The translations under genes and the position numbers were made by a program. From an uncultured virus (IMG/VR IMGVR_UViG_3300044638_009799) (taxonomy: Duplodnaviria > Heunggongvirae > Uroviricota > Caudoviricetes), in the IMG/VR virus record IMGVR_UViG_3300044638_009799: DNA of 64,000 nucleotides; one strand, 5' to 3'. This document shows, piece after piece, positions 10,832 through 63,287 of this stretch. Numbering within the stretch: position 1 is the first letter of the stretch; each line of letters begins with the position of its first letter. A model generated the notes under the pieces. It was given only the letters and a program-made list of their open reading frames with translations. It had not been told where the DNA came from and made no database searches.

Positions 10832-10910
10832 AAATTAATATTTAAAGCGCAAGGAAGCGCATATATAATTTTGCAATATACTCCTTTTGGATAGTGAAAA
10901 AAGGTAAAAA

Positions 10911-15392: not shown

Positions 15393-15395
15393 AAA

Positions 15396-19515: not shown

Positions 19516-19575
19516 ATTTTCTTTACTAGCATTTGCTGATAGTCAGATAACTTTTACTTAAAAGGAAATTATTAA

Positions 19576-20583
19576 ATGTTTCTTTACATCACTTGTGATA
19601 GAATTGGCAATGGAACTGGTGGTGGCACAGTTACCAAAAATGAATTGGAAGCACTTAGCAATTTGGGTCCAATTGATGTAGTTAATCCTCAACCAACTCA
19701 AGATCCGTTTGAAGCAGAAAATGTAATTGATATTCCCAATTTAGAAAAATACAAACTAGCACACTTTTATGCTGGAACATTTCCTAAATTAACTAAAAAA
19801 TTGAAAGAAAAAGGCATCAAGATTTCTTATACGGCAGCAGCCCACGATATTAAAGCAAGCCAAGAGGAATTTAAAATCCTTGGCATTCCTTATGACTTTC
19901 CACACATTAGCAATCCCATACTATGGAATCAATATATATCAAGTTATATTGATGCTGATCTTGTTATTTGTCCAAGCAAACATAGCAATAAAGTAATGCA
20001 AGAATTTGGATGCAAGAACACAACTGTAATACCTCACGGATGCTATGAAGGTGTTAACTATCCTTATCCTAAAACCTTTTCAGTAGGGTACTTGGGTCAA
20101 ATTGGACCAGATAAAGGAGTTAAATATTTAATTGAGGCTTGGGCAAAATTGAATTATAAGGATGCAGTATTAACATTTGCAGGACAGCAATCGCCATATT
20201 TGATTCATATGATTCGTCAATTTGGTGGTAGAGCTAATTATAATATTTTAGGTTATGTGAAAACATTAGATGAATTTTTTAAATCAATTAATGTTTATGT
20301 CCAACCGAGTGTTACGGAAGGTTTTGGAATTGAGATTCTTGAAGCCATGACATTTGGAAGACCAGTTATTGCTTCATACGGAGTTGGTGCTGCTGATTGT
20401 TTGAATAATAATTGTAAACTAGTATTGAAGAAAGATCCCAACTGTATTGCTAAAGCGATTGATTGGTATAAGAACAATACATGGGATTATAGAGAAGAAT
20501 TAATGTCTTATGTTAAAAAATACAATTGGAAAAATATAAGGGAATGTTACATTAATACTTGGAGAGGAATGTTGGAATCATGA
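19576..20583 (+). CDS. GT4 glycosyltransferase
   Basis: PSVTEGFGIEILEAMTFGRPVI. Confidence 0.88.
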   Translation: MFLYITCDRIGNGTGGGTVTKNELEALSNLGPIDVVNPQPTQDPFEAENVIDIPNLEKYKLAHFYAGTFPKLTKKLKEKGIKISYTAAAHDIKASQEEFKILGIPYDFPHISNPILWNQYISSYIDADLVICPSKHSNKVMQEFGCKNTTVIPHGCYEGVNYPYPKTFSVGYLGQIGPDKGVKYLIEAWAKLNYKDAVLTFAGQQSPYLIHMIRQFGGRANYNILGYVKTLDEFFKSINVYVQPSVTEGFGIEILEAMTFGRPVIASYGVGAADCLNNNCKLVLKKDPNCIAKAIDWYKNNTWDYREELMSYVKKYNWKNIRECYINTWRGMLES

Positions 20584-22205
20584 GTTATACTTTTCCGTTT
20601 ACAAAAAATGTAATTGAATTGGGTGGAGGAGACAATCCTTACTTCCGTCCAAATGTTGATGTTCGTTCTGGTGACACTGTGGATGTAGTGGCTGATTTCA
20701 ATCAATCTTTGCCTCTTACAAATTCCACATACGATGGTGTTTTTAGTTGCTATTGTATTGAACATCTTTCTTGGCGTAAAGTCAAACTTTTTGTTTCAGA
20801 AGTATTTAGAATTCTTCGTGATAGTGGCAAAGCCGTTTTTATAACAGCTAACACAAAAAGACAAATGGAATGGGTATTGAATCAAGAAGAATGGAATGAT
20901 GACAGTTCTTCCATTATATTTGGTGATCAGAATTATGATGAAAACACGCACAGAAACAGTCTTTGTCCTGTTTATGCAATCAAGCTAATGCGTGAAGCAG
21001 GGTTTGAAAACATAGTAGTTTTACCACATGGGGAGTTAGGAACAGACATGATTATTGAAGTTGCAAAACCAAAAAAAGAAGATCGCAAAAGTCTATTCGA
21101 CAAACATTATTTCAATGGTGGCGGCAAAGTTGGCGGTTACGCTCATGAAGGATATTGGGATTATCCTGTTCACTGGGTTACTTATCAAAAAGTAATGGAA
21201 CACAATCCCGAATCCATTCTAGAGATTGGTGCTGCTAGAGGGTACATGGTTAAGAAATTTAATGATGCTGGAGTTAGATCTAAAGGATTAGAAATTAGTC
21301 ATCATTGTCAACTAACCAGAGTTACCAATGATGTGATTGAATGGGACATTTGTCAGACTCCTTGGAATTTCAAAGACAAAGAATTTGATTTAGCGTTTTC
21401 AACAGCAGTTTTTGAACATATTCCAGAAGAACATCTTGATGCTGTTTTGAAAGAAATGGATCGAGTTAGTAAGCGTGGCTTGCATGGTGTTGATTTTGGT
21501 GAAAATGATGATGGATTTGATAAAACTCATTGTACTTTGAGAACTAAGGAATGGTGGCTTAAAAGAATGCCATCAACGCAATTGGTTGTTGACAAAGAAG
21601 ACTTAGAGCGTGGAAATATTGCTGTCAACATTCCTGCTGGCGACAATAAACTTAAGGTTAACTTTGGCAGCTTTATTAATATGTTCCATTACGGATGGAT
21701 CAATACTGATGTTTTGAATTTACAAGATTTTGCATCTAGGCACAAATATAAATTTTTAGCAATTAATGCACAAAATCCATTACCTTTTCAAAATGAAACT
21801 ATTGATTTGGCTTATTCAAGTCATATGTTTGAACACTTGACTGTCGCAGAAGGTATCAGTTTCCTTAGTGAATGTTATCGTTGCATGAAAAAAGGTGCTG
21901 TATTGCGTATTGCAGTACCAGATGCTGATAAATTGATTAAATATTATCAAGCCAATCAATTGAATGTATTTGATGAAATTAACGATGGCTGTGCTAGAAA
22001 TGAATTTGAATCAGGTAAATTGTGGTCATTGCTATTTGAAGGTCATAAAATTGCATATGATTTTGCTGGTTTAAAGACATTAGGTGAAAAATCAGGATTT
22101 AAAGTGGAAAAGAAAACATTTTGCAATGGAAATGAACAGATTGTCAAGGAAACTATTGATATGTTGCCTGAAATTAGTTTGTTTGTCGAAATGACAAAAA
22201 ATTAA
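20580..22205 (+). CDS. Triple SAM-methyltransferase-domain protein
   Basis: Three motif-I/EH pairs: ELGGG..CIEHL, EIGAARG..VFEHI, NFGS..MFEHL; start moved to ATG 20580. Confidence 0.75.
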   Translation: MSYTFPFTKNVIELGGGDNPYFRPNVDVRSGDTVDVVADFNQSLPLTNSTYDGVFSCYCIEHLSWRKVKLFVSEVFRILRDSGKAVFITANTKRQMEWVLNQEEWNDDSSSIIFGDQNYDENTHRNSLCPVYAIKLMREAGFENIVVLPHGELGTDMIIEVAKPKKEDRKSLFDKHYFNGGGKVGGYAHEGYWDYPVHWVTYQKVMEHNPESILEIGAARGYMVKKFNDAGVRSKGLEISHHCQLTRVTNDVIEWDICQTPWNFKDKEFDLAFSTAVFEHIPEEHLDAVLKEMDRVSKRGLHGVDFGENDDGFDKTHCTLRTKEWWLKRMPSTQLVVDKEDLERGNIAVNIPAGDNKLKVNFGSFINMFHYGWINTDVLNLQDFASRHKYKFLAINAQNPLPFQNETIDLAYSSHMFEHLTVAEGISFLSECYRCMKKGAVLRIAVPDADKLIKYYQANQLNVFDEINDGCARNEFESGKLWSLLFEGHKIAYDFAGLKTLGEKSGFKVEKKTFCNGNEQIVKETIDMLPEISLFVEMTKN

Positions 22206-22369
22206 TTCCAATGTCTCATACAATTAGCCATAATAAAACCACATGTAATTATATTTATCACCCAAAAGAATGTACGAATGATCACTGTTAAGCAGTGATC
22301 ATTTTCATTTAAGTCCAAGGCTCTTCGCCAAATAGATGAAAAATATTCAATGTTTGTTTTTGTAGTCAT
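22202..22369 (-). CDS. Small membrane protein (55 aa), T4-like phage ..IIRTF..RHWN family
   Basis: Not in ORF track. MTTKTNIEYFSSIWRRALDLNENDHCLTVIIRTFFWVINIITCGFIMANCMRHWN; family recognised from memory. Confidence 0.6.
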   Translation of the reverse strand: MTTKTNIEYFSSIWRRALDLNENDHCLTVIIRTFFWVINIITCGFIMANCMRHWN

Positions 22370-22449
22370 TTTAAATATTTAATTTATTTTGTGCAAATTT
22401 GTAAAAAATATTTAAACAATGAATATAATTTTAGCTTCTTGGTCAAATA

Positions 22450-23190
22450 TTATCCCATAAATTTGCCATTTACTGTTTTTGCTTTTACTTCATTGTAAAA
22501 TAATATGTCACTTTCTATGCTTCTGTATATCTTTTTATACATTTTTGAATTTAATTCTTTTTTTGCATTTGTGTTTCTATTTGTTCCATTTCTACAGCTG
22601 TTTATATCCAGATAGTCCCATCCAGCTAAATCTTTCATTACTTTGATATCTTCTTGATAATTATCTACAAAAATTATTGCATCAAATTGTCTAAGCCTCT
22701 CCCTTGCTAACTCTACACTCTTGCCACAAGCCAAATAATGCACCAAAGGTCCACTAAAGTACGAGCTTTCATCTTCGTAAATAATTGATTTCATTCTTTC
22801 AAGTGATCTTTTGTTTTCTAAAAAAATTTTAAAATTTTTTTTGTATTTACTTGTTTCACATTCGTGATGATAACAACTTAAAAGTATATCAATAGGATGC
22901 CTCAAAACTGTAACATATTTAATTTTTGAATCAAGATGGAAATCTTTAATGTAACCTTCATTAGCGCAAAAGGTAAATTTTTCTGTATCTAAAAAATTCA
23001 GTAAATCTTCTTTACCATAGTTCCAAAATTCAATAATTTTGTTTTCTGAATCATATGGATTGCCATTTTTGTGTGAATCATAAAATTTCTCACCATTTTT
23101 TTCAGCAAGATTCACAAAAGTGCTACCCCCTGACTTGTGTATGTGTAAAAAATAAATCATTCTGTTCATAATTATTGAATTATATATCAA
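22450..23190 (-). CDS. Sulfotransferase family 2-like protein
   Basis: FLHIHKSGGST (5'-PSB) and LRHPIDILLSCY (3'-PB). Confidence 0.8.
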   Translation of the reverse strand: MIYNSIIMNRMIYFLHIHKSGGSTFVNLAEKNGEKFYDSHKNGNPYDSENKIIEFWNYGKEDLLNFLDTEKFTFCANEGYIKDFHLDSKIKYVTVLRHPIDILLSCYHHECETSKYKKNFKIFLENKRSLERMKSIIYEDESSYFSGPLVHYLACGKSVELARERLRQFDAIIFVDNYQEDIKVMKDLAGWDYLDINSCRNGTNRNTNAKKELNSKMYKKIYRSIESDILFYNEVKAKTVNGKFMG

Positions 23191-25262: not shown

Positions 25263-25300
25263 CTATGCTTATATACTAATCAAGATAAAAATTTAAAAAA

Positions 25301-25374
25301 TGACCCCGGTGGGACTCGAACCCACGACCTACGCATTAAAAGTGCGTTGTTCTAGCCAACTGAACTACGAGGTC
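25301..25374 (-). tRNA. tRNA-Lys(UUU), CCA not encoded
   Basis: Acceptor GACCTCG/CGGGGTC, D arm, anticodon arm ACGCA-CTTTTAA-TGCGT, T loop GTTCGAG. Confidence 0.95.
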
Positions 25375-25381
25375 ATAAAAC

Positions 25382-27960: not shown

Positions 27961-28716
27961 TTATTTTCTTATTTTGTTCAAAAGGTCAATATTAGATTTC
28001 ATAATTTCAAGATTTTTAACATTTTTAGAAATTAAACTTTTTATAGTAAGTGATCCTTTGTGCTCAACAAAACTTTTATAAGATATTGCAATTTTGTATC
28101 CAAGTTTGGTTAATTTGTAACAAAATGCTTCATCTTCAAACCAAGCCAATGGAAATTCAGGTATTCCTTGAGTGCTATGCCACGCCGCCAACTCAATAAT
28201 GCAGCAATACATAGGAACAAAATTATTAATAATTAATTTTGGTGGTTCATCAACCACATTTTTTCTTTGTAAAATATTTTCATTTACTTGTGGATTATTA
28301 GTAATGGCTGTCATCATGGCAACATTATCATGTCTCATGGAGATAAAGTCTTTATATAAATTTGAAAGCGATTTTCTATCAACTAAACATGAATCACTGT
28401 GCATAATAACAACAATTGTTTTTTCGACATTTCTCATTCCCAGATTAACGCCTGCACCAAAACCCAGATTTTTTTCACTTCTTATAATCTTTATTTTTGG
28501 ATGTTGGCTATACATTAAGCCAAATTCTTTATTTTCAGATCCGTTATCAACTAAAATCAATTTATTGATGATTTGAGAAGAATGCATAAATATACTTTTT
28601 ATCAATTTGTTTACAGATTCATAACATCCATGAAATGGTACAATAATATCAATTAATTTTTCCGTAGGAGGTCTGATATTAACCACTGGCTTAAAACTAT
28701 TTTTTTCAGTTGTCAT
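27961..28716 (-). CDS. GT2 glycosyltransferase
   Basis: DIIVPF, LVDNGS, NLGFGAGVN, WFEDE. Confidence 0.85.
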   Translation of the reverse strand: MTTEKNSFKPVVNIRPPTEKLIDIIVPFHGCYESVNKLIKSIFMHSSQIINKLILVDNGSENKEFGLMYSQHPKIKIIRSEKNLGFGAGVNLGMRNVEKTIVVIMHSDSCLVDRKSLSNLYKDFISMRHDNVAMMTAITNNPQVNENILQRKNVVDEPPKLIINNFVPMYCCIIELAAWHSTQGIPEFPLAWFEDEAFCYKLTKLGYKIAISYKSFVEHKGSLTIKSLISKNVKNLEIMKSNIDLLNKIRK

Positions 28717-38243: not shown

Positions 38244-38708
38244 ATGATTGGTTTTAAAAAATTCATAGAAAACGTGAACATATTTCCCGGCGCTATGGTA
38301 ACAAGCAGCGATACCGGGTCACAAGCTGTTTCTACTTTTGGATATACTGGTCGTCCTAATCACTTGCCAGATCTCGACATGGCTATAAATGATGGAGATT
38401 TTTCGATACCTAAAGTTAAAAAAGAAGGAATAATAAAACGCTTGTCCGATAAAACGAAAACAATAGAAGCAGAGCTTGAAGATGGGACCAAATTGTTTTT
38501 CAGCCCCACCCAATACAGGATGATAAGAGGTGAAACACCTTTGGTCCCAAAATACACCAAGCTAAAAGTCGTTTTCCAGCGTTTAGGAAAAGACTTTAGC
38601 TCAAGTTCATCGAATATAGTTGATATAGAAGCGTCATTTATTGGTCCAGATCATCTTCGACCCGTATATAAAATAAAAACTACTAACTACAAAGCAGCAC
38701 AGCTTTAA
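38244..38708 (+). CDS. Hypothetical phage protein
   Basis: Start MIGFKKFIE after TACATA. Confidence 0.5.
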   Translation: MIGFKKFIENVNIFPGAMVTSSDTGSQAVSTFGYTGRPNHLPDLDMAINDGDFSIPKVKKEGIIKRLSDKTKTIEAELEDGTKLFFSPTQYRMIRGETPLVPKYTKLKVVFQRLGKDFSSSSSNIVDIEASFIGPDHLRPVYKIKTTNYKAAQL

Positions 38709-38997
38709 TAGTAACTGGATCTACAAGAACCTTATCACGTTCTGATTCAGGACCATATTCTGGTGCTGGGACAGCGTTGCCTGAAATAACAACACGATCA
38801 CCCACTGCAAAACCATAAGACTTGTTATCAACCTGTGGTCCGATTCCAAGGATAATTGCTTGATACTCAGCACCAGCTCTCTTATTCGTATTATTAAGAA
38901 TAAGCTTAGTGTTTGCCATCTCTTGTGTAGTCAAAAGTTCGATAAGAACTTGGTTACCACATGGTTTGCAGCCAGTTACTTTCTTGATATCGCTCAT
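38683..38997 (-). CDS. groES: GroES/Cpn10-like co-chaperonin
   Basis: KPCGNQVLIE, ILGIGP, VGDRVVI, IKAVL. Confidence 0.7.
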   Translation of the reverse strand: MSDIKKVTGCKPCGNQVLIELLTTQEMANTKLILNNTNKRAGAEYQAIILGIGPQVDNKSYGFAVGDRVVISGNAVPAPEYGPESERDKVLVDPVTIKAVLLCS

Positions 38998-49224: not shown

Positions 49225-51036
49225 ATGATTATAATTAATTTTCGTGAATATTTTTATTTATATGAATCAATTGATCAAAATTTTGATCAATGGCTTGTAG
49301 ATTTGAAAACACATGCAAGACCAGATGAATCAGAAATAAAAACATTCAATATTCCAGATAATAAAAAACAATTTATAATTAATATTCTTAAATCAAAAAA
49401 TGTTGAAAATAAACAATATATGAAGTACTTGCTTGGTTTTGCAACAACACCTCAATCATCTCACATTGAAGACTATGATCGTGTTGTTGACACACTAAAA
49501 TGGTTCATCCAAACAAATAGATTAACCAAAGCACAAGTCGAAGCAGATGGATGGTTTAATACAGGAAAAAGAGCAACAGAACTGACACAAGAAAAAGATC
49601 AAATACTTAACCCATATTCAAAAACAAAAGAAAAAAAAGAAAAAAAACTTGGAATAGCAGAAAATATTTTACCTTTATTCCAATCAGGAAATATAAAAAT
49701 TTATTTTTCTCCAAAAGCAACCAATGAAAAAAGTAATTTTGAAAAAATAAAAGAAGATGCTGAAAAACCAGAGATGAAAGCAAGACATAAAATTTTGTGC
49801 AAATACGGTAAAGATACAAATTGGTGTACAGCATCAGCAAGTGGAACTTTTCATGCAATATATGCAGATAGAAACATTTACATAGTTCATATAGATGACA
49901 AACCAGCTTATCAATTTATGGATTGTAGTGAAGGTGACACAGATAATAGATGTCAATTTCATGATGCTAAGAACGCAAGTGCTAAATCAATTCCTCTTGA
50001 TTTAGCATTATTGATTAAAGAAAAATTACCAAAGATAGCTTCATTTTATGGTTGCATAATAAACACTTTTATCAAAAATGGTCCTTTAAATCTTGTTAAA
50101 TATCTTATAGATGAAAAAGAATATAAAATAAATATTGATTCACTTTCTATGGCACTCCAAGGTGGTCATTTAGATATTATTAAATATCTTGAAGATGAAA
50201 AAGGTGCAAAAATAGATACTTATACAATTAGTAATATAATTGAAAGTGGTAATTTAGATGTTGTTAAAGATCTTGTGGAAAAAAAAGGTGCAGGCATAGG
50301 TGTTAATGCATATTCTGATGCAGTCAAAAGTGGCAATTTAAATGTTGTTAAATATGTTGTGGAAAAAGGTGCAACAATAGGTATTAATGCAGTTAATAAT
50401 GCAATAGAAACTGGTAATTTAGATCTTATTGAATATCTTGTAGATGAAAAAGAATATTTTATACATAATGATGGATTTATTCTAGCAATCAAAAATGGTC
50501 ATTTACATATTGTTAAATATCTTGTAAATGAAAAAGGTAAAGAAATAAGTTATGATTTATTTCAGAAAGCGGTACTCAGTGGTCATTTAAATATTGTTAA
50601 ATTTTTTATGGAAAAAAATGCAAGAATAGCAAGCCTAGGTGATGGACATATGGCTTACCTTGCAGCAAGCAAGGGTCATTTACATATTCTTAAATATCTT
50701 GTAGAGGAAAAAGGTGTAAAAATAAATGATATGACATATAACGAAGCAATCGATAAAGGTCATTTAGATGTTATAAAATATTTATCGGGAGATGAGGTTG
50801 TTGATAAGGAAGGCAATGTTTATAAATTGAAAGATGGTATAAAACCATACAAAATAGATAATTACGCAGTTTATGCTGCGGCACAAAATGGAAAATTAAA
50901 TATTGTTAAATATCTTGTAGAAAAAGGTGCAGAAATAATTGATGATGCAGTTTATATTGCATATGAAAAAGGGCATAAAGATATAGGTGATTATTTGAGA
51001 TCAGCGATCAGCCATGATTGGAGTAAAAATGATTAG
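49225..51036 (+). CDS. Ankyrin-repeat protein A (shared N-domain with YGKDTxWCTAS)
   Basis: Many GHL/GNLxxVKYLVE repeats. Confidence 0.85.
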   Translation: MIIINFREYFYLYESIDQNFDQWLVDLKTHARPDESEIKTFNIPDNKKQFIINILKSKNVENKQYMKYLLGFATTPQSSHIEDYDRVVDTLKWFIQTNRLTKAQVEADGWFNTGKRATELTQEKDQILNPYSKTKEKKEKKLGIAENILPLFQSGNIKIYFSPKATNEKSNFEKIKEDAEKPEMKARHKILCKYGKDTNWCTASASGTFHAIYADRNIYIVHIDDKPAYQFMDCSEGDTDNRCQFHDAKNASAKSIPLDLALLIKEKLPKIASFYGCIINTFIKNGPLNLVKYLIDEKEYKINIDSLSMALQGGHLDIIKYLEDEKGAKIDTYTISNIIESGNLDVVKDLVEKKGAGIGVNAYSDAVKSGNLNVVKYVVEKGATIGINAVNNAIETGNLDLIEYLVDEKEYFIHNDGFILAIKNGHLHIVKYLVNEKGKEISYDLFQKAVLSGHLNIVKFFMEKNARIASLGDGHMAYLAASKGHLHILKYLVEEKGVKINDMTYNEAIDKGHLDVIKYLSGDEVVDKEGNVYKLKDGIKPYKIDNYAVYAAAQNGKLNIVKYLVEKGAEIIDDAVYIAYEKGHKDIGDYLRSAISHDWSKND

Positions 51037-53011
51037 AATTAATTTTCGTGAATATTTTTATTTATACGAATCAATTGATCAAAATTTTAATCAATGGCTT
51101 GTAGATTTGAAAACACATGCAAGACCAGATGAATCAGAAATAAAAACATTCAATATTCCAGATAATAAAAAACAATTTATCATTAATACTCTTAAATCAA
51201 AAAATATTGAAGATAAACAATATATGAAATATTTAATTGGTTTTGCAACAACACCTCAATCATCTCACATTGAAGATTATGATCGTGTTGTTGACACACT
51301 AAAATGGTTCATTCAAACAAATAGATTAACCAAAGCACAAGTCGAAGCAGATGGATGGTTCAATACAGGAAAAAGGGCAACGGAACTAACAAGAGAAAAA
51401 GATCAAATACTTAACCCAGCTTCAAAAACAAAAGAGAAAAAAGAAAAAAAACTTGGAATAGCAGAAGATATTTCACCTTTATTCCAATCAGGAAATATAA
51501 AAATTTATTTTTCTCCAAAAGTAACCAATGAAAAAAACAATTTTGAAAAAATAAAAGAAAATGCTGAAAAACCAGAGATGAAAGCAAGACATAAAATTTT
51601 GTGCAAATACGGTAAAGATACAGATTGGTGTACAGCATCACCAACTGGAACTTCTCATGTAATGTATGCAGACAGAAACATTTACATAGTTCATATAGAT
51701 GACAAACCAGCTTATCAATTTATGGATTGTAGTTATGAGGGTGACACAGATGGTACATGTCAATTTCATGATGCTAAGAACGTAAGTGCTATATCAATTC
51801 CTCTTGATTTAGCATTATTGATTAAAGAAAAATTACCAAAGATAGCTTCATTTTATGGTTGTGTAATAAACACTTTTATTGAAAATGGTGATTTAGATAT
51901 TGTTAAATATCTTGTAGAAAAAGGTGGGAAAGTAGGTTTTGATACAGTTTCTTATGCAGCAGGAACTAGAAATTTAGAACTTGTTGAATATCTTATAGAA
52001 AAATGTGGAAAAATAGGTGATAAGGAAGTTTATTATGCAGCAGAGAAGGGCAATTTAGATTTTGTTAAATGTCTTGTAAAAAAAGGTGCAAAAATAGGTG
52101 ATGAGACAGTTTCTAAAGCAGCAGAAATTAATCGTTTAGATCTTGTTAAATTTCTTGTAGAAAACGGTGGAAAAATAGGTGATGAGGCAGTTTCTAGTGC
52201 AGCAGAGAAGGGCAATTTAGATCTTGTTAAATTTCTTGTAGAAAACGGTGGAAAAATAGGTGATGAGGCAGTTTCTAAAGCAGCAAGGGCTGACAATTTA
52301 GAACTTGTTGAATATCTTGTAGAAAAAGGTGCAGAAATAGGTGATGTGGCAGTTTATTATGCAGCAGAGAAGGGCGATTTAGATTTTGTTAAATATCTTG
52401 TAAAAAAAGGTGCAAAAATAAGTTATGATGCAGTTTCTAGTGCAGTAGAGAAGGGCAATTTAGATCTTGTTAAATTTCTTGTAGAAAACGGTGGAAAAAT
52501 AGATGAATATACAGTTAATCGTGCAGTAAGGATTGACAATTTAGCTCTTGTTAAATATCTTGTAGATGAAAAAAGTGCAAAAATAAGTGATGACGTAGTT
52601 TCTAATGCAATTCATAATGCAGTAATGACTGGTAGTTTAGATACTATTGAATATCTTTTAGAAAAAGGTGCAAAAATAGGCAAATATGACGTTTATAGAG
52701 CAGTCGAATACGGCTTTGACAATGGCGTTGATCTTGTTGAATATCTTATAGAAAAAGGTGGAATAATAGATGACGAGACAGTTAGATTGGCAGCAAAAAA
52801 TAATGATTTAAAATTTGTTAAATATCTTGTAGAAAAAGGTGCAGAAATAGGTGATGCAGTTACTTATGCAGCAGGAACTGGAAATTTAGAACTTGTTGAA
52901 TATCTTGTAGAAAAAGGTGGGAAAGTAGATAATTATGCAGTTAGATATGCAGCAAATAAGGGCAATTTAGATCTTGTTAATTATTTGAAATCAGCCATGA
53001 ATAGAAACTAA
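51029..53011 (+). CDS. Ankyrin-repeat protein B, tandem paralog
   Basis: N-terminal ~285 codons near-identical to A; 27-aa repeats; exact 62-bp DNA repeat 52135-52196 = 52216-52277. Confidence 0.85.
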   Translation: MIRINFREYFYLYESIDQNFNQWLVDLKTHARPDESEIKTFNIPDNKKQFIINTLKSKNIEDKQYMKYLIGFATTPQSSHIEDYDRVVDTLKWFIQTNRLTKAQVEADGWFNTGKRATELTREKDQILNPASKTKEKKEKKLGIAEDISPLFQSGNIKIYFSPKVTNEKNNFEKIKENAEKPEMKARHKILCKYGKDTDWCTASPTGTSHVMYADRNIYIVHIDDKPAYQFMDCSYEGDTDGTCQFHDAKNVSAISIPLDLALLIKEKLPKIASFYGCVINTFIENGDLDIVKYLVEKGGKVGFDTVSYAAGTRNLELVEYLIEKCGKIGDKEVYYAAEKGNLDFVKCLVKKGAKIGDETVSKAAEINRLDLVKFLVENGGKIGDEAVSSAAEKGNLDLVKFLVENGGKIGDEAVSKAARADNLELVEYLVEKGAEIGDVAVYYAAEKGDLDFVKYLVKKGAKISYDAVSSAVEKGNLDLVKFLVENGGKIDEYTVNRAVRIDNLALVKYLVDEKSAKISDDVVSNAIHNAVMTGSLDTIEYLLEKGAKIGKYDVYRAVEYGFDNGVDLVEYLIEKGGIIDDETVRLAAKNNDLKFVKYLVEKGAEIGDAVTYAAGTGNLELVEYLVEKGGKVDNYAVRYAANKGNLDLVNYLKSAMNRN

Positions 53012-53055: not shown

Positions 53056-54393
53056 TCAAGCTTGACTAAACTTTAGTACAGCTTGACTACCTCTGTTCTC
53101 TGAGAGGAATCTAGAGAATAGCAGGTCATGTCTGATTGGATCTACGTCAGTAACACCAAGTAAATATAAGACGAGAGAACCAGCACCAGAACCTCTTCCG
53201 GGTCCAACCGCATAGACACCATCCAAACCAGTAATCTCATGACTAATTCTCCTAGCTTCATCAGTAAAACTTTTAACAATTAAAAAGTAAGATGAAAATT
53301 GCTTTCTAAAAATCAAATCTAATTCTTCTAATATTCTCTTGAAATAAACACCATTAGTTTTACTAATCCCTCTCTTCTTCAAACCTTGCATCACTAATTC
53401 TTTCAATTTCTCCTCTTCATCAACAATCTTAGGCAATTTAACACTTCTGTCCAACTTAACATTCTCTGCCATGCGACATATCTTAACAGTATTCATCTTG
53501 GCTTGTTCAAATATCTCCAAAGGAATTACATCAGAATATTTCTCAAGCCACTTCTTGTTCATTTCATCTTCAGTCTTCATCCAAAGATTTCTATCCTGCA
53601 ATTCAAAAACATCAGCATTTTCTGACTTCAACTTTTCAATTTCAGCTAATGTCCTCTTAGTGTTAACCAACATCATTATTGTCTGATACTTGCTATCTTC
53701 CTCATATGCATAATGAACATCATTGCTCATAATCATAGGAATACCATGCTTAAGATGCATTTCTACTAAAAATTGGTCATAACCTCTCTGATACTCAAAA
53801 TCAAGCAACATCATTTCAAGATAAAAGTTATCACCAAACATATCCTTGTATTTCAGAACCATTTCTTCTGCTTTTTCTTTTCCATATAGCTTCAAAGCTC
53901 TTGCTGCTTCTGAAGCGCAACAACAACTAGTAAAGATTATACCTTCTCTGTGTTTCTTTAATAATTCATGATTAACTCTAGGTTTCCTATAAAAACCTTG
54001 TGACCAACCAAGGCTACAAAGTTTAGTTAAGTTTTCGTAACCTTTGTTTGAAACGGCAATGGCTAATATATGACTTGATGTTTTGAATGCTTCGTATTGA
54101 TCAGGAGAAAGACTCTTTATGAAGTTATTTCTTTCTTCTTCGTTCTCAGTTGCTTCTGTGTGAATAGGATTAACGTAAAGCTCGCAGCCAAAAACGGGCT
54201 TAAACTTCTTTTTATCAAATTGTTCTGTTTGTGAGATTAGACTTGGAATTGATGCCATAAGTCCATGATCAGTAACACAAAGATAGTCGCCATGCGTACT
54301 CCATCTGTCGCAATATTCTAAAATTTTCCCAAAACCGTCAAGGATACTGTATTCGCTATGTAAATGAAGGTGTTCAAATCCAACAATATTCAT
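53056..54393 (-). CDS. dnaE: DNA polymerase III alpha (DnaE), N-terminal PHP part
   Basis: HLHLHSEYSILDG, TDHG, GCELY, KPR, NDVHY, GPGRGSGAGSLV, LLFSRFL; start ATG 54393 (or TTG 54420). Confidence 0.92.
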   Translation of the reverse strand: MNIVGFEHLHLHSEYSILDGFGKILEYCDRWSTHGDYLCVTDHGLMASIPSLISQTEQFDKKKFKPVFGCELYVNPIHTEATENEEERNNFIKSLSPDQYEAFKTSSHILAIAVSNKGYENLTKLCSLGWSQGFYRKPRVNHELLKKHREGIIFTSCCCASEAARALKLYGKEKAEEMVLKYKDMFGDNFYLEMMLLDFEYQRGYDQFLVEMHLKHGIPMIMSNDVHYAYEEDSKYQTIMMLVNTKRTLAEIEKLKSENADVFELQDRNLWMKTEDEMNKKWLEKYSDVIPLEIFEQAKMNTVKICRMAENVKLDRSVKLPKIVDEEEKLKELVMQGLKKRGISKTNGVYFKRILEELDLIFRKQFSSYFLIVKSFTDEARRISHEITGLDGVYAVGPGRGSGAGSLVLYLLGVTDVDPIRHDLLFSRFLSENRGSQAVLKFSQA

Positions 54394-54431
54394 GTGATTA
54401 ACTATCCTTGCTAATAACAAATTACCTCCAC

Positions 54432-54460
54432 ATTTTAACATATGGAGTTGTTTTTGTCAA
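54432..54460 (-). promoter_or_regulatory. sigma70 promoter of dnaE-N
   Basis: TTGACA-17nt-TAAAAT with TGn extended -10. Confidence 0.7.
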
Positions 54461-57010: not shown

Positions 57011-57757
57011 TTATGTCTTCACCAAGCCAATCGTTCTTCCACGCAAGTCTCTCCATCCTACCATGTTTGGTCCTTCAATATCAAGATTTTTCAATAATAA
57101 AAGCCCATTTTTTTCTATTTTGTCCATATAAAAAGAAACATCAACGGGCTTGCTCATTGTGTCTAGATATAAAATTTTATATTTTTTGTCTTTTTCTAAT
57201 TGGTAATTTATATTCATATGTTTTCCAAATATATGAGAATTTTTAACAACAAAATCATCCATGACTAATGCTTCTGCATTACTCTCTGTGAAAAATAAAG
57301 ACCATATATAACTAAATGGCATAAAAGAATAGTAATCGCTTAATTTGTAAAATAACTTTGGTTTATTTTGTGAATAAAATTGCCAAGATTCATTAAACAT
57401 TTTAAACAAATCGATCCTATTGTAATCTCTAAGAACAAAATTTTTATGTGTATCTGAATCAAATTCCAATTTACATTCAGAAAACATACCTTTTAAAAGG
57501 ATATGCTCGCAGTGTTTTTTAATATGAGTTTCAATTAATTGTAATTCTTGCAATACATTATCTGAAAAAAATATATTAACAAAGGTTTTATGGCTAAGAA
57601 TGCTTCTAACAAAAAACGAATTAGCTATCGAATGATCGCAAAACAAATAATTTTTATAATTTTTATTTTTTAGGCTTTCATCAAATTTTTGATACCACTT
57701 AGTAAAAGGCAATCCCGGAGCATTTTGAAAAATAAATCTAAAATCTGGATAATTCAT
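57011..57757 (-). CDS. Hypothetical protein
   Basis: ATGA-coupled to spoVR. Confidence 0.5.
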   Translation of the reverse strand: MNYPDFRFIFQNAPGLPFTKWYQKFDESLKNKNYKNYLFCDHSIANSFFVRSILSHKTFVNIFFSDNVLQELQLIETHIKKHCEHILLKGMFSECKLEFDSDTHKNFVLRDYNRIDLFKMFNESWQFYSQNKPKLFYKLSDYYSFMPFSYIWSLFFTESNAEALVMDDFVVKNSHIFGKHMNINYQLEKDKKYKILYLDTMSKPVDVSFYMDKIEKNGLLLLKNLDIEGPNMVGWRDLRGRTIGLVKT

Positions 57758-59349
57758 AGTTTATTCAATTGCTCCCTAGTAATTGATTTTGGATCAGCTG
57801 AATCATAATCACCATTCATATCCTGACAATAATAAAAAACTTCGTCGCCATTATGGTTTTTAGTTTCTAAAACAACTGGCTGTCTCATTAAGGAACAAAT
57901 AGACTTCATTACTTCGTATGCATAAGGTTTATAAAGTTCGATACCTTCCCACTTATGTTCCATAAAAAACATATTACCTTTAAATCTTGGCTCAATCAAT
58001 TTAATTGATGGTAATCCTCGATTAATATATTTCCTAAGCAACTCTTTCTTGATCTTCTTGTAATCTCTACTTTCAATCTTAACTTCACCATTTGGATATC
58101 TTTTGTATTCAAAAAATTCGTTCTTTTCGCAAAAATCTTTAGTAAAAAATTCATTAATAAATTGATAATCATCATAGTTTTTGCAAACTTCAAAAACTTT
58201 TTGCTTACCAAGACCAAGCTTTAGATCCCAATTTTCTTTCTCAAGAGGATCAGCACAGTTTTCATAATCTGTACCAAATCTACCCTTGTCCCATCTTTCC
58301 TCAATATCCATCAAAAGAGTGAATCCAAGTTTATATGGATTCATACTATACTTACCACCAAGAACACCAGCCTTATGAATTGAATATTCCACAATCCCAG
58401 CATCTTCTGTTTCTTGACCAAGGCTACAATAACCTTGTTTTGCAATAATGTGATAATCGCAATAACTCGCAAGTCCTTCATTCAATGCTTTGGTTTTACC
58501 TTGTGGGCTAAAATAAATTGCTTCATTATAAAGAATTTCTGCAATATCTCGTTGCCAAGGTTTGAATGGCGCATTTTCTTTAATATAACCAAATATATCA
58601 GTCTCTGGTGTAATAAGAAGATTAAGATCTTGCATAATCTCACGTTCTTCAATTTTCTTGTTTTGAGTTTTTATAAAAGATTTAGTGTTAATCCAATCTT
58701 CCATGTAATCATTTTTTGTTTTAATCCTTCGTGGAAATACATAATCTTTATTATCTGTGATGACAACGTCTTTTGCTTTTCTTTCTTTCCATATATTCAT
58801 TGGATCGACAAGCGTTTCTATCCTAAATAAATGATCCATAAATTCAGTAACAGTCTCTCTTCCATATCGAGACATATACTTTCTTACATTTGATCCATTG
58901 TTGGCAAGCTCATTGTGAGCATTCGTATTAGTTCTAGAAAAATGAATGTTGTTTTTGAAAAAATGACAATGCCCAAGAGCATGAGCAATAACTGTAATAT
59001 TATCAAGTAAAGTGTTTGAATTTAGGCAATACAAGTAACATGGTGAAGAATTAATCACCATTTCATATATTCTATGATTGCCATATAGATATCCTCTTTG
59101 CATTTCCTCGTATTCTGCACCAAATTTCCAATGAGGAAACCTTACTGCAAAGCCGCCGTAGCTTGCAACTTCAGACATTTCATCATGAGAAAGCATTTGA
59201 ACAATAGTAGGGTAAAAATCCAAACCAAAATCTTTACAAGCTTGAAAAATAGTGGGAATATGTTTTTGTAATTCTTCTGGAATGGGCACACCGGGAGTGG
59301 TTGCTGATCCAAACAAAACTGGTGAGCCGAATAAGAATTTATCTGACAT
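57754..59349 (-). CDS. spoVR: SpoVR/YcgB family protein
   Basis: GLDFYP, RFPHWKFG, IYEMVIN..PC, AHALGHCHFFKNN, PQGKTKALNEG.ASY, NPYKLG. Confidence 0.93.
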   Translation of the reverse strand: MSDKFLFGSPVLFGSATTPGVPIPEELQKHIPTIFQACKDFGLDFYPTIVQMLSHDEMSEVASYGGFAVRFPHWKFGAEYEEMQRGYLYGNHRIYEMVINSSPCYLYCLNSNTLLDNITVIAHALGHCHFFKNNIHFSRTNTNAHNELANNGSNVRKYMSRYGRETVTEFMDHLFRIETLVDPMNIWKERKAKDVVITDNKDYVFPRRIKTKNDYMEDWINTKSFIKTQNKKIEEREIMQDLNLLITPETDIFGYIKENAPFKPWQRDIAEILYNEAIYFSPQGKTKALNEGLASYCDYHIIAKQGYCSLGQETEDAGIVEYSIHKAGVLGGKYSMNPYKLGFTLLMDIEERWDKGRFGTDYENCADPLEKENWDLKLGLGKQKVFEVCKNYDDYQFINEFFTKDFCEKNEFFEYKRYPNGEVKIESRDYKKIKKELLRKYINRGLPSIKLIEPRFKGNMFFMEHKWEGIELYKPYAYEVMKSICSLMRQPVVLETKNHNGDEVFYYCQDMNGDYDSADPKSITREQLNKL

Positions 59350-59351
59350 GA

Positions 59352-60539
59352 TTAAAACACCCGATTGGCACTTTGGAAAGGAGACCCTAAAATATCTTTA
59401 ATAGCTTTCAGAATAGCTTCATTTCTTCTTTCTTCGCTATTGATAACATCAAATGGAATTTCTGCAACAACCACATTGTCTTCTAAATCGCCTTCTACAA
59501 TAGCTTTCTCAACAGATTCTGCAACGCTGTGGTTGTAAGCATAAGCTCCTATTTGAGTTACAGCAACGAGATTTACAATATTTTGACCAAACTCTTTCTT
59601 TAACAGTGAAACAAAAACTTCATTATCATTGTCATAGTTTTCACCATCAGTAAAATAAAAGAAATAGATGTTCCAATTGTTTGGAGGAAATCTGTTTTCA
59701 AATTGTTTTGCGACTAGATCTAAAGCTGTAGAGCATGTGGTGCCACCGCCATTTCTTATCCTGTAGAAATCTTTGGCATCGACTTCATGAGCGGCAACAT
59801 CGTGCCATACATAAAGTCTTTCTACTCGTTCATAAAAATTTCGAATATAAGTATCAATCCAATATGCCATGTCAGAAACAACGGACACTTTCCTGTCGTC
59901 CATAGATCCACTAGCATCTCTGGCAAAGATAACCACAGCATTGCTGGACGGAAATTTAATTTCTTTGTATTGTCGATATCTTTTGTCAGAGTTAATTGGA
60001 TTAATCATCTTGACTTTATCTTTAACACCGGGAATTTCATATAAATTGTTAATTTCTCCAGTTCCGCATAGACGCTTCATTGCTGTAAGCATTGTTCTGC
60101 GTGTATGACGAAGAGATTCTGGACCAACAAGAGAAATATTGTTGTATTTTATTTTTATGTCTTCAAGATTAGCTTGTTGTTTAGGTTTAAGGTCAGGGAG
60201 TTGCAATTCATCTTTCATAAAATGAAGGATGTCTTCCATGTCAATCTGAACGATAATGCCTTCACTTTCATCCTGCCCTGCACCGTTACCTTGTCCTTGA
60301 CCTTTGTCTTTCCCTAAGACATCACCTTCTTGACCATCTCCACGTCCAACACCATTGGGATTTTTCCCGTGAAGAAAATGAGGAATGTCAATTGCAGGAA
60401 TCTTTATAGAAACTTTGCCATTTTTACCACGGTGACGAAAAATTTCACCACTTTTGATGAACTTCTTTAAGTTCTTTCTAATCCTACCGCTGACCACATC
60501 CCTAAAGTCTTTGTGGTCAGAATCAATCCTTCTGGGCAA
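59352..60539 (-). CDS. yeaH: YeaH/YhbH (DUF444) VWA-domain protein
   Basis: DHKDFR, P.SNAV, MIDAS DASGSM, GGT..S, WNIY.F.FTDGEN. Confidence 0.92.
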   Translation of the reverse strand: MPRRIDSDHKDFRDVVSGRIRKNLKKFIKSGEIFRHRGKNGKVSIKIPAIDIPHFLHGKNPNGVGRGDGQEGDVLGKDKGQGQGNGAGQDESEGIIVQIDMEDILHFMKDELQLPDLKPKQQANLEDIKIKYNNISLVGPESLRHTRRTMLTAMKRLCGTGEINNLYEIPGVKDKVKMINPINSDKRYRQYKEIKFPSSNAVVIFARDASGSMDDRKVSVVSDMAYWIDTYIRNFYERVERLYVWHDVAAHEVDAKDFYRIRNGGGTTCSTALDLVAKQFENRFPPNNWNIYFFYFTDGENYDNDNEVFVSLLKKEFGQNIVNLVAVTQIGAYAYNHSVAESVEKAIVEGDLEDNVVVAEIPFDVINSEERRNEAILKAIKDILGSPFQSANRVF

Positions 60540-60555
60540 TTTTATTCTCCTTAAA

Positions 60556-62631
60556 TTAGAACAGATCTTCTGCTAGATCGCCTCTTGCAAAAATACTGCT
60601 TACATAATCAAGCACATCTGTTGCGCTCTGCTCATTATAACCATATTTTTCAACAAGTCTTTGCTTAACCGCATCAATCTTCTTTTGAACATCTGGGTCA
60701 ACTGTTGTCGCTCCAGATGAAAATGCACTTAGCTTAATGTGATCTTTTGTGTCTTCAAACAATTTTGCTTCCAAAGCTTTCTTAAGGAGGGAATTACTAT
60801 CCCACCTAAAAACCTTTTGTTTAATAGCAAGATCACCAATAAATGCCGCAATCATTCTTCGGAAGTCATCACAAGTAGATTCTGGAACATCAATCTTACT
60901 CTCAATAGATCGCATTAATTTTTCATCTGGACTTTCTTCTCGTCCAGTAATCTTATTGGTAATTTTTGCTTTATTAATGTAAGCCATCAAATTGTCGATA
61001 TAATTTGCACAAAGCCTGACAATTGCTTCTTCATCTCCAACAAGAGCCTTTTGAACTTCATTCTTAAGAATGTCATCAAGCTTCTTAGTTGCAAGAGTAA
61101 CACAGTTTTGATACTTGCGCACCAAATCTTTATTAGAAATAAGAGAATGATTATCAAGTCCACTCTTTAAGGCATTTAACACCATGAATGGATTGATGTA
61201 ATCATGTCTGCTTGACAGCGTAGAAGAAATCTTGTCCTGCACATACCTTGCAGACATACCAGTCATGCCTTCATTCGGATTCTTATCTCTGAGTTCACGA
61301 ACTCTATCAATTGTCCATCCGGGCAACATCTTTCCATCGTAAAGATCTGCCTTTTCAGTCAAAGTAATCTTATTGTCCTTATCATCTTCCAAACGTGTCA
61401 ACACTGAAAACAATGCAGCAATCTGCAAAGTATGAGGAGCAATATGTTGCTTAATCTTATTCAAATTATAATCTTGTTCCAACACCTTAAGCTCCTTGCT
61501 CCATTCCAAGAGATAAGGAACTTCAATTCTTACAGTTCTGTCCTTTAAAGCTTCCATGTATTGGTTATTCTTTAACTTTTCGTACTCAGGAATGTTAGTG
61601 TGTCCAATGATAGCTTCGTCAATACTAATCTGAGAAAACTTCTTAGGCTTGATTGACTTCTCTTGTGATGCTCCGAGAAGATCATACAAGAAAGCTGTTT
61701 CAAGCTTTAACATTTCAATGAATTCAATAACACCACGATTAGCAACGCAGAATTCCCCATCAAAATTGAATGTTCTTGGATCAGAATCACTTCCAAATGT
61801 TGGCAATAAAGCGAAATTAATATCACCAGTAAGCTCTGTACTATCTTGGTTCTTTTCGTCTTTAGGTTGGAAAGAAGCAATGCCAACTCTATCTGCTTCA
61901 GAATATTGCTTTCGGACAACAACAATGTGGTTGTTTACAACTTTAACCCAATCTCCATTATACATCTTGAGTAATTTGTCAAAGAAAAACTTACATTTTG
62001 GATTGATTTCACCTTCTACAGCAAGACTATAGAGAGTTGTTCTTTGTGATGGGTCAGCATTGCCGCTATGAATCTTATTTAGTTCATCAAGTACTTGCTT
62101 CCTTACTGTAAGGGGAAGAAGCTTCAAAGGATCTTCATTCATTGGGCAATCACAAACATCGCTTGTATAAAATCCATTCTGTCCTGTTGGGAGATTAACC
62201 CATTTATATGAATACCAAGCACCATTTTCAGTCTTGGAATAATCTTCCATGTTACGTTTAATTAATCGACAAATAGTAGATTTAGCAGAACCTACAGGTC
62301 CGCATAGAAGAAGTATGCGTTTTTCTGGACCATAATGTCCGGCTGCGCCCTTGAAATGAGCAACCAAAGACTCAAGCTGTTCTTCAATACCAAAAACTTT
62401 AATTTCTTCATGGTTCTCAAAAAACTTATAAGTTACGATCTTCTTGCGATACTTATCAATTTCTTCTGTTCCAAATGAAGTAATCATGTCGTAAATTCTT
62501 TGATGAGAATTACGAGCCAATTTTGGATTGTTATAACATCTGTTAATATATTCTTCAAAGCCAAGCTCTTCATGGAGCTTTTTGTAATCATCAAGATTAT
62601 TGTTATTAGCGAACTGTGTTAAACTAACCAT
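60556..62631 (-). CDS. prkA: PrkA/YeaG AAA+ serine protein kinase
   Basis: ARNSHQRIYDMI, LCGPVGSAKST, P.DEKNQD, DGEFCVANRG, EMLK, HTN. Confidence 0.95.
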   Translation of the reverse strand: MVSLTQFANNNNLDDYKKLHEELGFEEYINRCYNNPKLARNSHQRIYDMITSFGTEEIDKYRKKIVTYKFFENHEEIKVFGIEEQLESLVAHFKGAAGHYGPEKRILLLCGPVGSAKSTICRLIKRNMEDYSKTENGAWYSYKWVNLPTGQNGFYTSDVCDCPMNEDPLKLLPLTVRKQVLDELNKIHSGNADPSQRTTLYSLAVEGEINPKCKFFFDKLLKMYNGDWVKVVNNHIVVVRKQYSEADRVGIASFQPKDEKNQDSTELTGDINFALLPTFGSDSDPRTFNFDGEFCVANRGVIEFIEMLKLETAFLYDLLGASQEKSIKPKKFSQISIDEAIIGHTNIPEYEKLKNNQYMEALKDRTVRIEVPYLLEWSKELKVLEQDYNLNKIKQHIAPHTLQIAALFSVLTRLEDDKDNKITLTEKADLYDGKMLPGWTIDRVRELRDKNPNEGMTGMSARYVQDKISSTLSSRHDYINPFMVLNALKSGLDNHSLISNKDLVRKYQNCVTLATKKLDDILKNEVQKALVGDEEAIVRLCANYIDNLMAYINKAKITNKITGREESPDEKLMRSIESKIDVPESTCDDFRRMIAAFIGDLAIKQKVFRWDSNSLLKKALEAKLFEDTKDHIKLSAFSSGATTVDPDVQKKIDAVKQRLVEKYGYNEQSATDVLDYVSSIFARGDLAEDLF

Positions 62632-62632
62632 A

Positions 62633-62959
62633 TTATTCTACCTCTCCAAAGTGGTTACCACTGGAAATATCATCAATACGCCTATATGGATTTTCTCCAG
62701 CGTTTGATGCTTTTTCTGCGTCTCTACGAAGATTCTGAGCTTGTTCTAGATTGTAACCTGCACGATAATTAAAATTGTCAAATTTGCTCGTATCTTTCGG
62801 TTGAGCAAATTTGACATTGGCATCATTTAACAGTTTTTTCTTTTTCTTTGAATTACAATGTGGACATGAGACACTAGCATATCGACCTTTAGGATCGAAC
62901 AATACTAGTGACTCATAATTTTTATTACAATTATTACACAAAAAATTATATGTAGGCAA
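62633..62959 (-). CDS. FmdB-family zinc-ribbon protein
   Basis: (M)PTYNFLCNNC..CPHCNS; TTG 62959 preferred. Confidence 0.7.
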   Translation of the reverse strand: MPTYNFLCNNCNKNYESLVLFDPKGRYASVSCPHCNSKKKKKLLNDANVKFAQPKDTSKFDNFNYRAGYNLEQAQNLRRDAEKASNAGENPYRRIDDISSGNHFGEVE

Positions 62960-63005
62960 GATACTAACCCCTGAACCAACCTTAAAATAGTATGGTTCAG
63001 GAAAA

Positions 63006-63287
63006 TCATTCACTGATAATTTTTTTTATTTCTTCATATACAATTTTAACTTTTTTCATTCTAGAAGGAATAGACATGAATGACCACATCCATGAACCTT
63101 TACAAATTTTATATGCTTCTTCAATAAGCTTAGCTTGTATTTCTTGTTCTATGAGTATGTTTTGCTCCATCTGCATAGCAACCATCTGTGAGTCGATGAA
63201 GGCATTTTCCTTATCATTTTCATCTTCATCTTCATCCTCATCCTCGAACCCATCATCGCCATAAGCAAAATCAAACCTGTTCTTCAT
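63006..63287 (-). CDS. Acidic hypothetical protein
   Basis: EDEDEDEDE tract; SD AGGAGG. Confidence 0.55.
   Translation of the reverse strand: MKNRFDFAYGDDGFEDEDEDEDENDKENAFIDSQMVAMQMEQNILIEQEIQAKLIEEAYKICKGSWMWSFMSIPSRMKKVKIVYEEIKKIISE

Follow-up and report, generated by a model that had tools for sequence, protein, structure and literature searches.

The subject of this analysis is a stretch of 64,000 nucleotides (nt) from an uncultured virus of the class Caudoviricetes (IMG/VR record IMGVR_UViG_3300044638_009799), here referred to as the window, and a gene cassette located on its minus strand at positions 57754-62959. The cassette consists of four intact open reading frames (ORFs) encoding a zinc ribbon protein, PrkA, YeaH (DUF444) and SpoVR. 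We propose that it represents an inherited and functional four-gene operon shared by a clade of huge phages from freshwater, which was derived from a bacterial operon of the long type and which would encode an ATP-driven machine for degrading or remodelling proteins. Taken as a whole, we give this proposal about an even chance.

The genes of the cassette, with their sizes in amino acids (aa), are:

62633..62959, minus strand: zinc ribbon protein, FmdB-type; 108 aa from a probable TTG start; match to TIGR02605
60556..62631, minus strand: PrkA/YeaG-family AAA+ ATPase, long subtype; 691 aa; Pfam AAA_PrkA and PrkA_C
59352..60539, minus strand: YeaH/YhbH (DUF444) with a VWA domain; 395 aa; Pfam DUF444
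57754..59349, minus strand: SpoVR/YcgB-family protein; 531 aa; Pfam SpoVR; no intein

The stop codon of the zinc ribbon gene and the ATG of prkA were separated by 1 nt, and the gaps between prkA and yeaH and between yeaH and spoVR were 16 nt and 2 nt, respectively. The genes were adjacent, on one strand and in the order prkA-yeaH-spoVR, as in an operon of this name. An original prediction, made from the letters of the window alone, had described three intact, tightly spaced genes of these families at this place, headed by an FmdB-type zinc ribbon and surrounded by phage orphans. This description was confirmed, including the motifs GPVGSAKST, DASGS and TDGEN, which were present in the translated ORFs; the flanking ORFs had no Pfam or PHROG family. 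The GC content was even over the locus (27-37%, window range 27-40%). Sigma-70-like sites were fewer in the promoter scan than in shuffled sequences (23 vs 34.6) and terminator-like sites were mostly found inside genes; neither kind of site was used to bound the operon.

PrkA contained both domains of its family above the Pfam cut-offs of 25 bits (AAA_PrkA, PF08298: 3.1e-77, 260.5 bits; PrkA_C, PF06798: 7.4e-73, 245.8 bits). The Walker A motif GPVGSAKST was intact at residues 111-119. G111, P112, V113, G114, S115, K117, S118 and T119 were invariant in 31 phage and cellular PrkA sequences, and the only variable position of the motif was 116, which is Ala in the window PrkA. A solved chain annotated as 'Serine protein kinase' (9xip_A, 692 aa) matched PrkA residues 10-683 with an E-value of 7.8e-205; 9xip, 9xiq and 9xir are the related solved entries, and no paper was found for the entry 9xip. 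The score for the E. coli YeaG equivalog NF011999 was 201.3 bits vs a cut-off of 576. Judged by these scores, the window PrkA is a family member of another subtype than E. coli YeaG.

YeaH was assigned to Pfam DUF444 (PF04285) with 8.5e-63 and 213.3 bits (cut-off 27), and the residues DASGS and TDGEN of a metal ion-dependent adhesion site (MIDAS) could be read in its translation. SpoVR was likewise a clear member of its Pfam family (PF04293; 1.4e-100, 337.4 bits, cut-off 27). As for PrkA, the scores of both proteins were below the NCBIfam equivalog cut-offs (NF003711: YeaH 322.9 bits, cut-off 388; NF008737: SpoVR 158 bits, cut-off 679); for YeaH this held for every NCBIfam equivalog. Sequence searches of the PDB gave no match with YeaH and no solved relative of SpoVR.

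The zinc ribbon protein exceeded the cut-off of NCBIfam TIGR02605 (FmdB) with 35.4 vs 31.3 bits, and its match to Pfam Zn_ribbon_8 (PF09723) was below the cut-off (4.8e-7, 30.1 bits vs 34.4). Mechanical ORF calling placed it at 62633-63013, starting from a GTG. Since the homologues start at M-P-x-Y, the true start is probably the TTG at 62959, which is also the end given by the original prediction; the GTG at 63013 would make the protein too long. An N-terminal CxxC...CPxC knuckle was present, with C8, C11, C32 and C35 invariant in 30 sequences, and the C-terminal tail was conserved as PY..IDDISSGxxFGEV(K/E).

Further genes of the window support the phage context. Family scans identified PhoH, dUTPase, the translation initiation factor IF3, a Cpn10-like protein, the alpha subunit of DNA polymerase III (DnaE) and many glycosyltransferases, and large proteins with matches to tail-fibre PHROGs were located at 9146-15893. 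The large terminase subunit TerL (PF03237) was found in four of five related records, including three IMG/VR contigs of 341-381 kb (68-79% complete according to CheckV). The related record without TerL was a contig of 91 kb, approximately 100% identical to the window and rated 16% complete. The nearest matching record was an IMG/VR fragment of 18.6 kb (G001) without PrkA. The best phage match of the window PrkA was found in an uncultured phage of 595 kb (LR756511.1, 62.6% identity), where the cassette is located at 347 kb. The N-terminal piece of DnaE and an orphan of 402 aa also had their best phage match in LR756511.1, only a few kb from its PrkA, and the neighbourhood is therefore common to both.

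To describe the distribution of the cassette, IMG/VR was scanned with PrkA. This yielded 143 candidate stretches, 140 of which were confirmed; 79 loci were kept (59-100% identity) and analyzed for synteny by tblastn together with LR756511.1, resulting in 80 phage loci. The zinc ribbon was located directly upstream of PrkA in all 80. YeaH followed PrkA in 78 and SpoVR in 76 of these loci, and every missing gene coincided with the end of a contig. For comparison, a cellular sample was drawn from one genome per prokaryote species, comprising the best 80 of at least 565 relatives when ranked by likeness to the phage PrkA. The cellular PrkA proteins were 49-55% identical and originated from Myxococcota, Planctomycetota, Bdellovibrionota, Calditrichota, Chloroflexota and others. 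Downstream of PrkA, YeaH was present in 56 and SpoVR in 49 of the 80 cellular loci. The zinc ribbon was detected in none of them (tblastn E<=1e-2; hidden Markov model (HMM) E<=10). When 48 distinct phage zinc ribbons were combined into an HMM, its 74 matching ORFs all came from loci of huge phages, and there was no match at E<=10 in the corresponding loci of Thermus phage TMA and phage RsoM2USA. A scan of IMG/VR with the single zinc ribbon protein, which reaches close relatives only, identified ten loci, all of which shared a contig with PrkA. The zinc ribbon belongs with the module, as had been suggested by the original prediction.

In FastTree phylogenies the phage copies were placed on one side of a branch for all three core genes. 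This branch separated 58 phage rows from 77 cellular rows for PrkA (support 96), and it comprised 59 phage rows for YeaH (support 98) and 57 for SpoVR (support 99). Exact duplicates as well as ORFs shorter than 600 (PrkA), 300 (YeaH) and 420 aa (SpoVR) had been dropped, and copies from Thermus and Ralstonia phages served as outgroup. By these trees the cassette is of single origin within the phage clade, and the genes were not nested within a sampled host clade.

Nei-Gojobori ratios of nonsynonymous to synonymous substitutions (dN/dS) were calculated against a related locus (L005). They amounted to 0.026 for PrkA, 0.031 for YeaH, 0.031 for SpoVR and 0.066 for the zinc ribbon, and dS of the three core genes ranged from 0.58 to 0.84. 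The flanking ORFs had ratios of 0.076-0.143. In three close contigs PrkA was 85-97% identical where the C-terminal piece of DnaE reached 79-83%. Going by the substitution ratios, the module is under strong purifying selection, which is not relaxed. Its importance for the phage is clear. Given the context, the trees, the dN/dS values and the presence of the module in related phages, the contig is viral, the locus is neither cellular nor chimeric, and the virus carries the whole three-gene module, as originally predicted.

Among close relatives the cassette was mosaic. Compared to locus L006, PrkA was 97% identical, whereas YeaH and SpoVR were 85-86% identical. Compared to L009 the pattern was reversed (PrkA 86%, YeaH and SpoVR 89%). 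These opposite differences suggest recombination within the operon (window 57754-62631).

DNA of the cassette was found in lake water. At least 0.90 of the sampled words were present in 19 lake-water metagenome runs from 19 studies; 11 of these runs are a possible source of the window DNA, and three runs not flagged in this way carried pieces with zero differences. A lake metatranscriptome run contained 10 contigs of a relative that was 90-95% alike, covering parts of SpoVR, YeaH and PrkA. One of these contigs, 1519 nt in size, extended from the 5' region of PrkA over the zinc ribbon to the acidic ORF located upstream of it. Since such libraries may hold DNA and contigs cannot show a transcript, this is a weak hint at expression of the cassette in the lake, and parts of the cassette that were not covered do not indicate silence.

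Two models of the SpoVR protein were obtained. The first was based on 27 sequences and reached a mediocre pLDDT of 73. A search of 1.84 billion representatives then gave 3744 SpoVR matches at E<=0.001, from which an alignment of 109 sequences was built; the second AlphaFold2 model obtained with it had a pLDDT of 89.4 and a pTM of 0.85. When the confident model was compared to known structures with VIA-align, zincin-type chains or relatives of this fold occupied 49 of 50 rows, with Z values between 10.6 and 5.6; the last row was taken by a CDC45 chain. The top match was the DUF885 protein 3o0y (Z 10.6, root mean square deviation 3.6, 188 residues aligned), and further matches included the M30 peptidase lugdulysin (Z 9.9), thermolysin (Z 7.4), M1 aminopeptidases, YbeY and peptidases of the families M3, M32, M9 and M36. 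The first model gave a similar, zincin-dominated list. On this evidence, which is moderate, SpoVR is predicted to have a zincin-like fold.

The predicted order of structural elements fits the zincin plan. Strands at residues 96-99 and 104-109 are followed by a helix at 114-133 and a later helix at 287-304. E96 is located on the first strand, the pair H123-x3-H127 on the first helix, and N290-E291-G292 on the later helix. E96, H127 and E291 were invariant and H123 was at least 90% conserved in the 109 sequences. The spacing of the histidines corresponds to that of the HExxH motif of zincins, but the motif itself was not found: the sequence reads H123-A-L-G-H127 (HALGH). Position 124 was Ala in all 14 phage rows, Val in 12 of 13 cellular rows and Thr in the remaining one, and never Glu in these 27 rows. 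For lack of a Glu at this position, SpoVR was not assigned to the zincin peptidases (clan MA). SpoVR may use another base, with E96 as a candidate, or may be non-catalytic. The stretch LNEG-x-AS-Y may resemble the motif NEGFASY of M1 peptidases, and IYEMVIN may resemble GAMEN.

In many relatives SpoVR was interrupted in frame at a position corresponding to window residue ~100 and/or ~295-312. The affected loci were L023, L029, L035, L037, L039, L040, L042, L047, L049, L051, L062, L066, L071, L073, L076 and L080. Locus L042 contained a single ORF of 1368 aa (9295-13401), in which SpoVR was combined with LAGLIDADG domains and two intein splicing domains, and locus L035 an ORF of 974 aa (9325-12249) in which SpoVR carried one intein. 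Inteins were present in all five long SpoVR representatives tested; the window SpoVR had none. The site at ~100 follows RIYEMVIN, and the one at ~295-312 is located just past the NEG motif. Inteins usually occupy conserved, functionally important sites of proteins that a genome cannot do without. Their insertion sites, next to the motifs of E96, H123, H127 and E291, point to the same SpoVR motifs as the fold model. In four further representatives of 620-730 aa (P0024, P0026, P0032 and P0053) an insert of ~200 aa was observed at profile position ~371, which was not recognised as an intein by Pfam.

Two features of SpoVR were restricted to the phage copies. These were an N-terminal extension (residues 2-14, pattern KFxxGSxxLxG) and an insert of 7-8 aa without counterpart in cellular SpoVR. 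As a guess, the extension and the zinc ribbon may contact each other. Co-folding of PrkA with the zinc ribbon, using alignments of 31 and 30 rows, gave a score of 0.00 vs a mark of 0.32, an outcome that carries no weight in either direction.

Among known systems, the cellular long-type operons, with a PrkA of ~690 aa, are closest to the cassette. They contain the same three families in the same order, with PrkA 49-55% identical, and keep the Walker A, MIDAS and SpoVR motifs as found in the phage. In contrast, they lack the zinc ribbon (0/80), the SpoVR extension of ~13-19 aa and the insert of 7-8 aa, and the phage copies were separated from the cellular rows by a branch in all three trees. YeaG (SpdA), YeaH and YcgB of E. 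coli and PrkA, YhbH and SpoVR of B. subtilis belong to the same Pfam families. Their subtype is distant from the window proteins (201, 323 and 158 bits vs equivalog cut-offs of 576, 388 and 679, respectively).

Within phages, PrkA copies were found in 17 of 50,697 records: 11 records of Thermus phages, RsoM2USA, Enterobacter phage LAU1 (at the record end) and four huge uncultured phages. The Thermus phages phiYS40, TMA, phiLo, Lalka and MN1 as well as the Ralstonia jumbo phage RsoM2USA carry clustered PrkA, DUF444-like and SpoVR genes. Their PrkA is of a short subtype and only 25-31% identical to the window PrkA, and no zinc ribbon was found at the TMA and RsoM2USA loci. The gene order in TMA is permuted (conserved protein, SpoVR, hypothetical protein, kinase), and SpoVR and a serine kinase are annotated as neighbours in the record. 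In the RsoM2USA paper, ORF30 is listed as PrkA and ORF28 as SpoVR in a table, and roles in the cell cycle are guessed (PMC8504454). These trios were probably acquired separately, which we infer only, since the Thermus and Ralstonia rows had served as the outgroup of the trees. PHROGs has families for all three genes, and the best-matching family is without function. The main text of a paper on huge phages contained no mention of PrkA, SpoVR, sporulation or protease, and its supplements may list the genes in question (PMC7162821). Literature searches for PrkA in jumbo phages and SpoVR in huge phages returned only the RsoM2USA paper. PrkA-YeaH-SpoVR trios have been annotated, but not studied, in other phages already. 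In the literature searched there is no description of the four-gene variant, in which the zinc ribbon is phage-only and SpoVR is modified.

The biochemical data on the bacterial proteins point to protein breakdown. In E. coli, starvation triggers a bulk, largely non-specific proteolysis in the cytoplasm for which yeaG (renamed spdA) is needed, and the yeaG-dependent protein loss supplies amino acids and ATP (PMC13684143). In B. subtilis, PrkA is an ATP-binding ATPase, and its ATP-dependent degradation of casein is slow; these activities are lost in a Walker A mutant, with K108 being needed for both the ATPase and the protease activity (PMC9512850). The genes yeaG, yeaH and ycgB were mutually cofit with r>0.7 in six bacteria, and lie in two operons in E. 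coli (10.1101/072470).

Combining the SpoVR fold with the YeaG, PrkA and cofitness papers leads to the proposed protein-degrading or remodelling machine. Within it, PrkA would act as the AAA+ motor, YeaH as the adaptor with its VWA domain and MIDAS, SpoVR as a zincin-like metal hydrolase, and the phage-only zinc ribbon protein as an added regulator or targeting subunit. Turnover of host cytoplasmic protein could in this way supply a phage of very large size with amino acids and energy in the nutrient-poor hosts of lakes. The phage would run the machine on its own schedule, and its copy would escape the RpoS/NtrC or sporulation control of the E. coli and B. subtilis systems.

In FtsH, an AAA+ motor is joined to a zincin peptidase of the family M41. 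On the reading proposed here the cassette would likewise provide an AAA+ motor and a metal hydrolase of zincin fold. Unlike in FtsH, motor and hydrolase are encoded as individual polypeptides, a VWA protein stands between the two, and SpoVR lacks the HExxH Glu. No sequence relation to FtsH was found with the SpoVR profile against the PDB; the two would work alike at most, and the cassette is not a member of this family.

A more specific form of this proposal is a self-contained bulk protease of the phage. Here PrkA would unfold the substrate, YeaH would couple the partners via its MIDAS and SpoVR would cut by means of H-x3-H and Glu291, with Glu96 as base; SpoVR would then be the unnamed cutter of the YeaG/SpdA starvation proteolysis. 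The zinc ribbon would release the machine from its control by starvation or direct it to proteins of the host, perhaps via its conserved C-terminal tail and the SpoVR extension. If this were true, huge lake phages would break down the proteome of the host to meet the cost of their own, very large one. We regard this form as possible but doubtful.

Several points weigh against a degrading or remodelling machine, whose function in the phage is inferred. The HExxH Glu is missing, so SpoVR may be a non-catalytic scaffold. The structural match is middling and provides moderate evidence, since the notes of the aligner state that helical models can reach Z 14 by chance. Foldseek found nothing in the PDB with either SpoVR model (best E 0.067 and 0.13), and the SpoVR profile retrieved no peptidase from the PDB sequences but only a designed helical protein (E 0.28). 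The main text on YeaG names neither YeaH nor YcgB (0 occurrences; PMC13684143), and the in vitro proteolysis by B. subtilis PrkA is slow, taking 16-24 h (PMC9512850). As to the history of the cassette, the trees are FastTree only, and since the cellular loci were chosen by PrkA likeness, cellular YeaH or SpoVR clades closer to the phage could have escaped the sample. The phage context is weakened by the fact that no terminase or capsid gene was identified within the window, and that two of the four related contigs checked, both of them long, are classed as 'provirus' by IMG/VR.

As an alternative, the module may be a signalling device. PrkA, as a Ser/Thr kinase partnered by YeaH and SpoVR, would then switch the starvation or dormancy programme of the host without bulk degradation, either to maintain a productive cell or to prevent its entry into dormancy. 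The family is annotated as serine protein kinase (PF06798 and the title of PDB entry 9xip), a reported autophosphorylation of YeaG is cited in PMC9512850 and other work calls YeaG a kinase. Furthermore, Price et al. proposed a signalling pathway from the cofitness data (10.1101/072470), and yeaG has been linked to survival of nitrogen starvation by Figueira 2015 (PMC4664914). However, B. subtilis PrkA showed neither kinase activity nor autophosphorylation and its C-terminal P-loop is degenerate (PMC9512850), the effect of yeaG in E. coli is a bulk loss of protein (PMC13684143), and the zincin-like fold of SpoVR would be left unexplained. We consider signalling to be unlikely.

The pairing of an AAA+ protein with a VWA/MIDAS protein is also seen in the MoxR-type pairs. 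By analogy the cassette could be a remodelling or assembly chaperone that matures or metallates a complex of the phage or the host, with SpoVR as a non-catalytic scaffold derived from a zincin and the zinc ribbon as client or adaptor. The absent HExxH Glu would agree with this, and so would a novel surface for a partner, as suggested by the zinc ribbon and the SpoVR extension that only the phage copies have. Yet there was no evident client nearby, only orphans being kept as neighbours across relatives; E96, H127 and E291 were as invariant as an active site would be; and the published phenotypes are protein loss and not maturation (PMC13684143, PMC9512850). A chaperone of this kind is in our view quite unlikely. 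Of the interpretation given in the original prediction, the presence of the whole module and the association of the zinc ribbon with it are supported. Control of dormancy and a chaperone function are left as less probable readings; the YeaG and PrkA data (PMC13684143, PMC9512850) and the zincin-like SpoVR point to protein breakdown instead.

A cellular or chimeric origin of the locus, or its recent uptake from a host without a role in the phage, is extremely improbable: against the two 'provirus' classifications and the missing terminase and capsid genes stand the cassette inside LR756511.1 with the same neighbours, the 79 IMG/VR loci, the one-sided phage rows in three trees, an identity to cellular PrkA of at most 55%, a dN/dS of ~0.03 and the even GC content.

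Among bacterial systems with unsettled biochemistry, PrkA/YeaG-YeaH-SpoVR is one of the most widespread, and YeaG was tied to the bulk turnover of protein in starvation only in 2026. The clade of huge phages keeps the complete module under purifying selection and together with its own zinc ribbon, which indicates that the three proteins act as a unit without host-specific regulators. It also suggests a phage strategy in which the protein of nutrient-poor host cells is recycled while a long infection proceeds. Together with the intein sites, the zincin-like model of SpoVR singles out E96, H123, H127 and E291, which would bear on the bacterial system too.

Two ORFs flank the cassette:

63006..63287, minus strand: acidic ORF directly upstream of the zinc ribbon; 93 aa; kept in part of the clade
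57011..57757, minus strand: orphan whose start overlaps the stop of SpoVR; 248 aa; closest relatives only

Neither of them had a Pfam, PHROG or NCBIfam family. The acidic ORF (dN/dS 0.076) gave blastp matches in 41 sources, the window included, and was found by tblastn with 25-100% identity in part of the related phage loci. For the orphan of 248 aa (dN/dS 0.096), tblastn matches (30-100% identity) among the 80 loci were limited to L005-L010, L012 and L027, and it may not be part of the module.

Elsewhere in the window the following genes were located:

53056-54441, minus strand: DnaE, N-terminal piece, 461 aa
46392-48860, minus strand: DnaE, C-terminal piece, 822 aa
49225-51036, plus strand: ankyrin-repeat protein, 603 aa
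51014-53011, plus strand: ankyrin-repeat protein, 665 aa
39047-39580, minus strand: translation initiation factor IF3
38683-38997, minus strand: Cpn10-like co-chaperonin
25300-25375, minus strand: tRNA-Lys (UUU)

DnaE was present in two pieces, separated by ~4.2 kb that hold the two ankyrin-repeat genes (49225-53011). In LR756511.1 it is a single ORF of 1179 aa (L182 2839-6378). The break is located just before the PDVD motif, and a head of ~80 aa on the C-terminal piece weakly repeats the end of the N-terminal piece. A scan of IMG/VR with the C-terminal piece identified 5 loci. Since three close relatives keep the same piece at 79-83% identity, the split form seems to be maintained. A split intein was rejected as its cause: neither piece contained a Pfam intein domain and the residues at the junction did not fit.

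One of the ankyrin-repeat proteins weakly matched DUF249 (multigene family 530 of large eukaryotic DNA viruses), which is unusual in a bacteriophage. The set of IF3, Cpn10-like protein and tRNA-Lys fits the known gene content of huge phages. Finally, the regions 1725-8949, 17789-23190 and 27961-28716 contained glycosyltransferases, methyltransferases, a DegT-type aminotransferase, a GNAT protein and a sulfotransferase around genes resembling tail fibres; these may form a set for glycan modification of the virion or the host surface.

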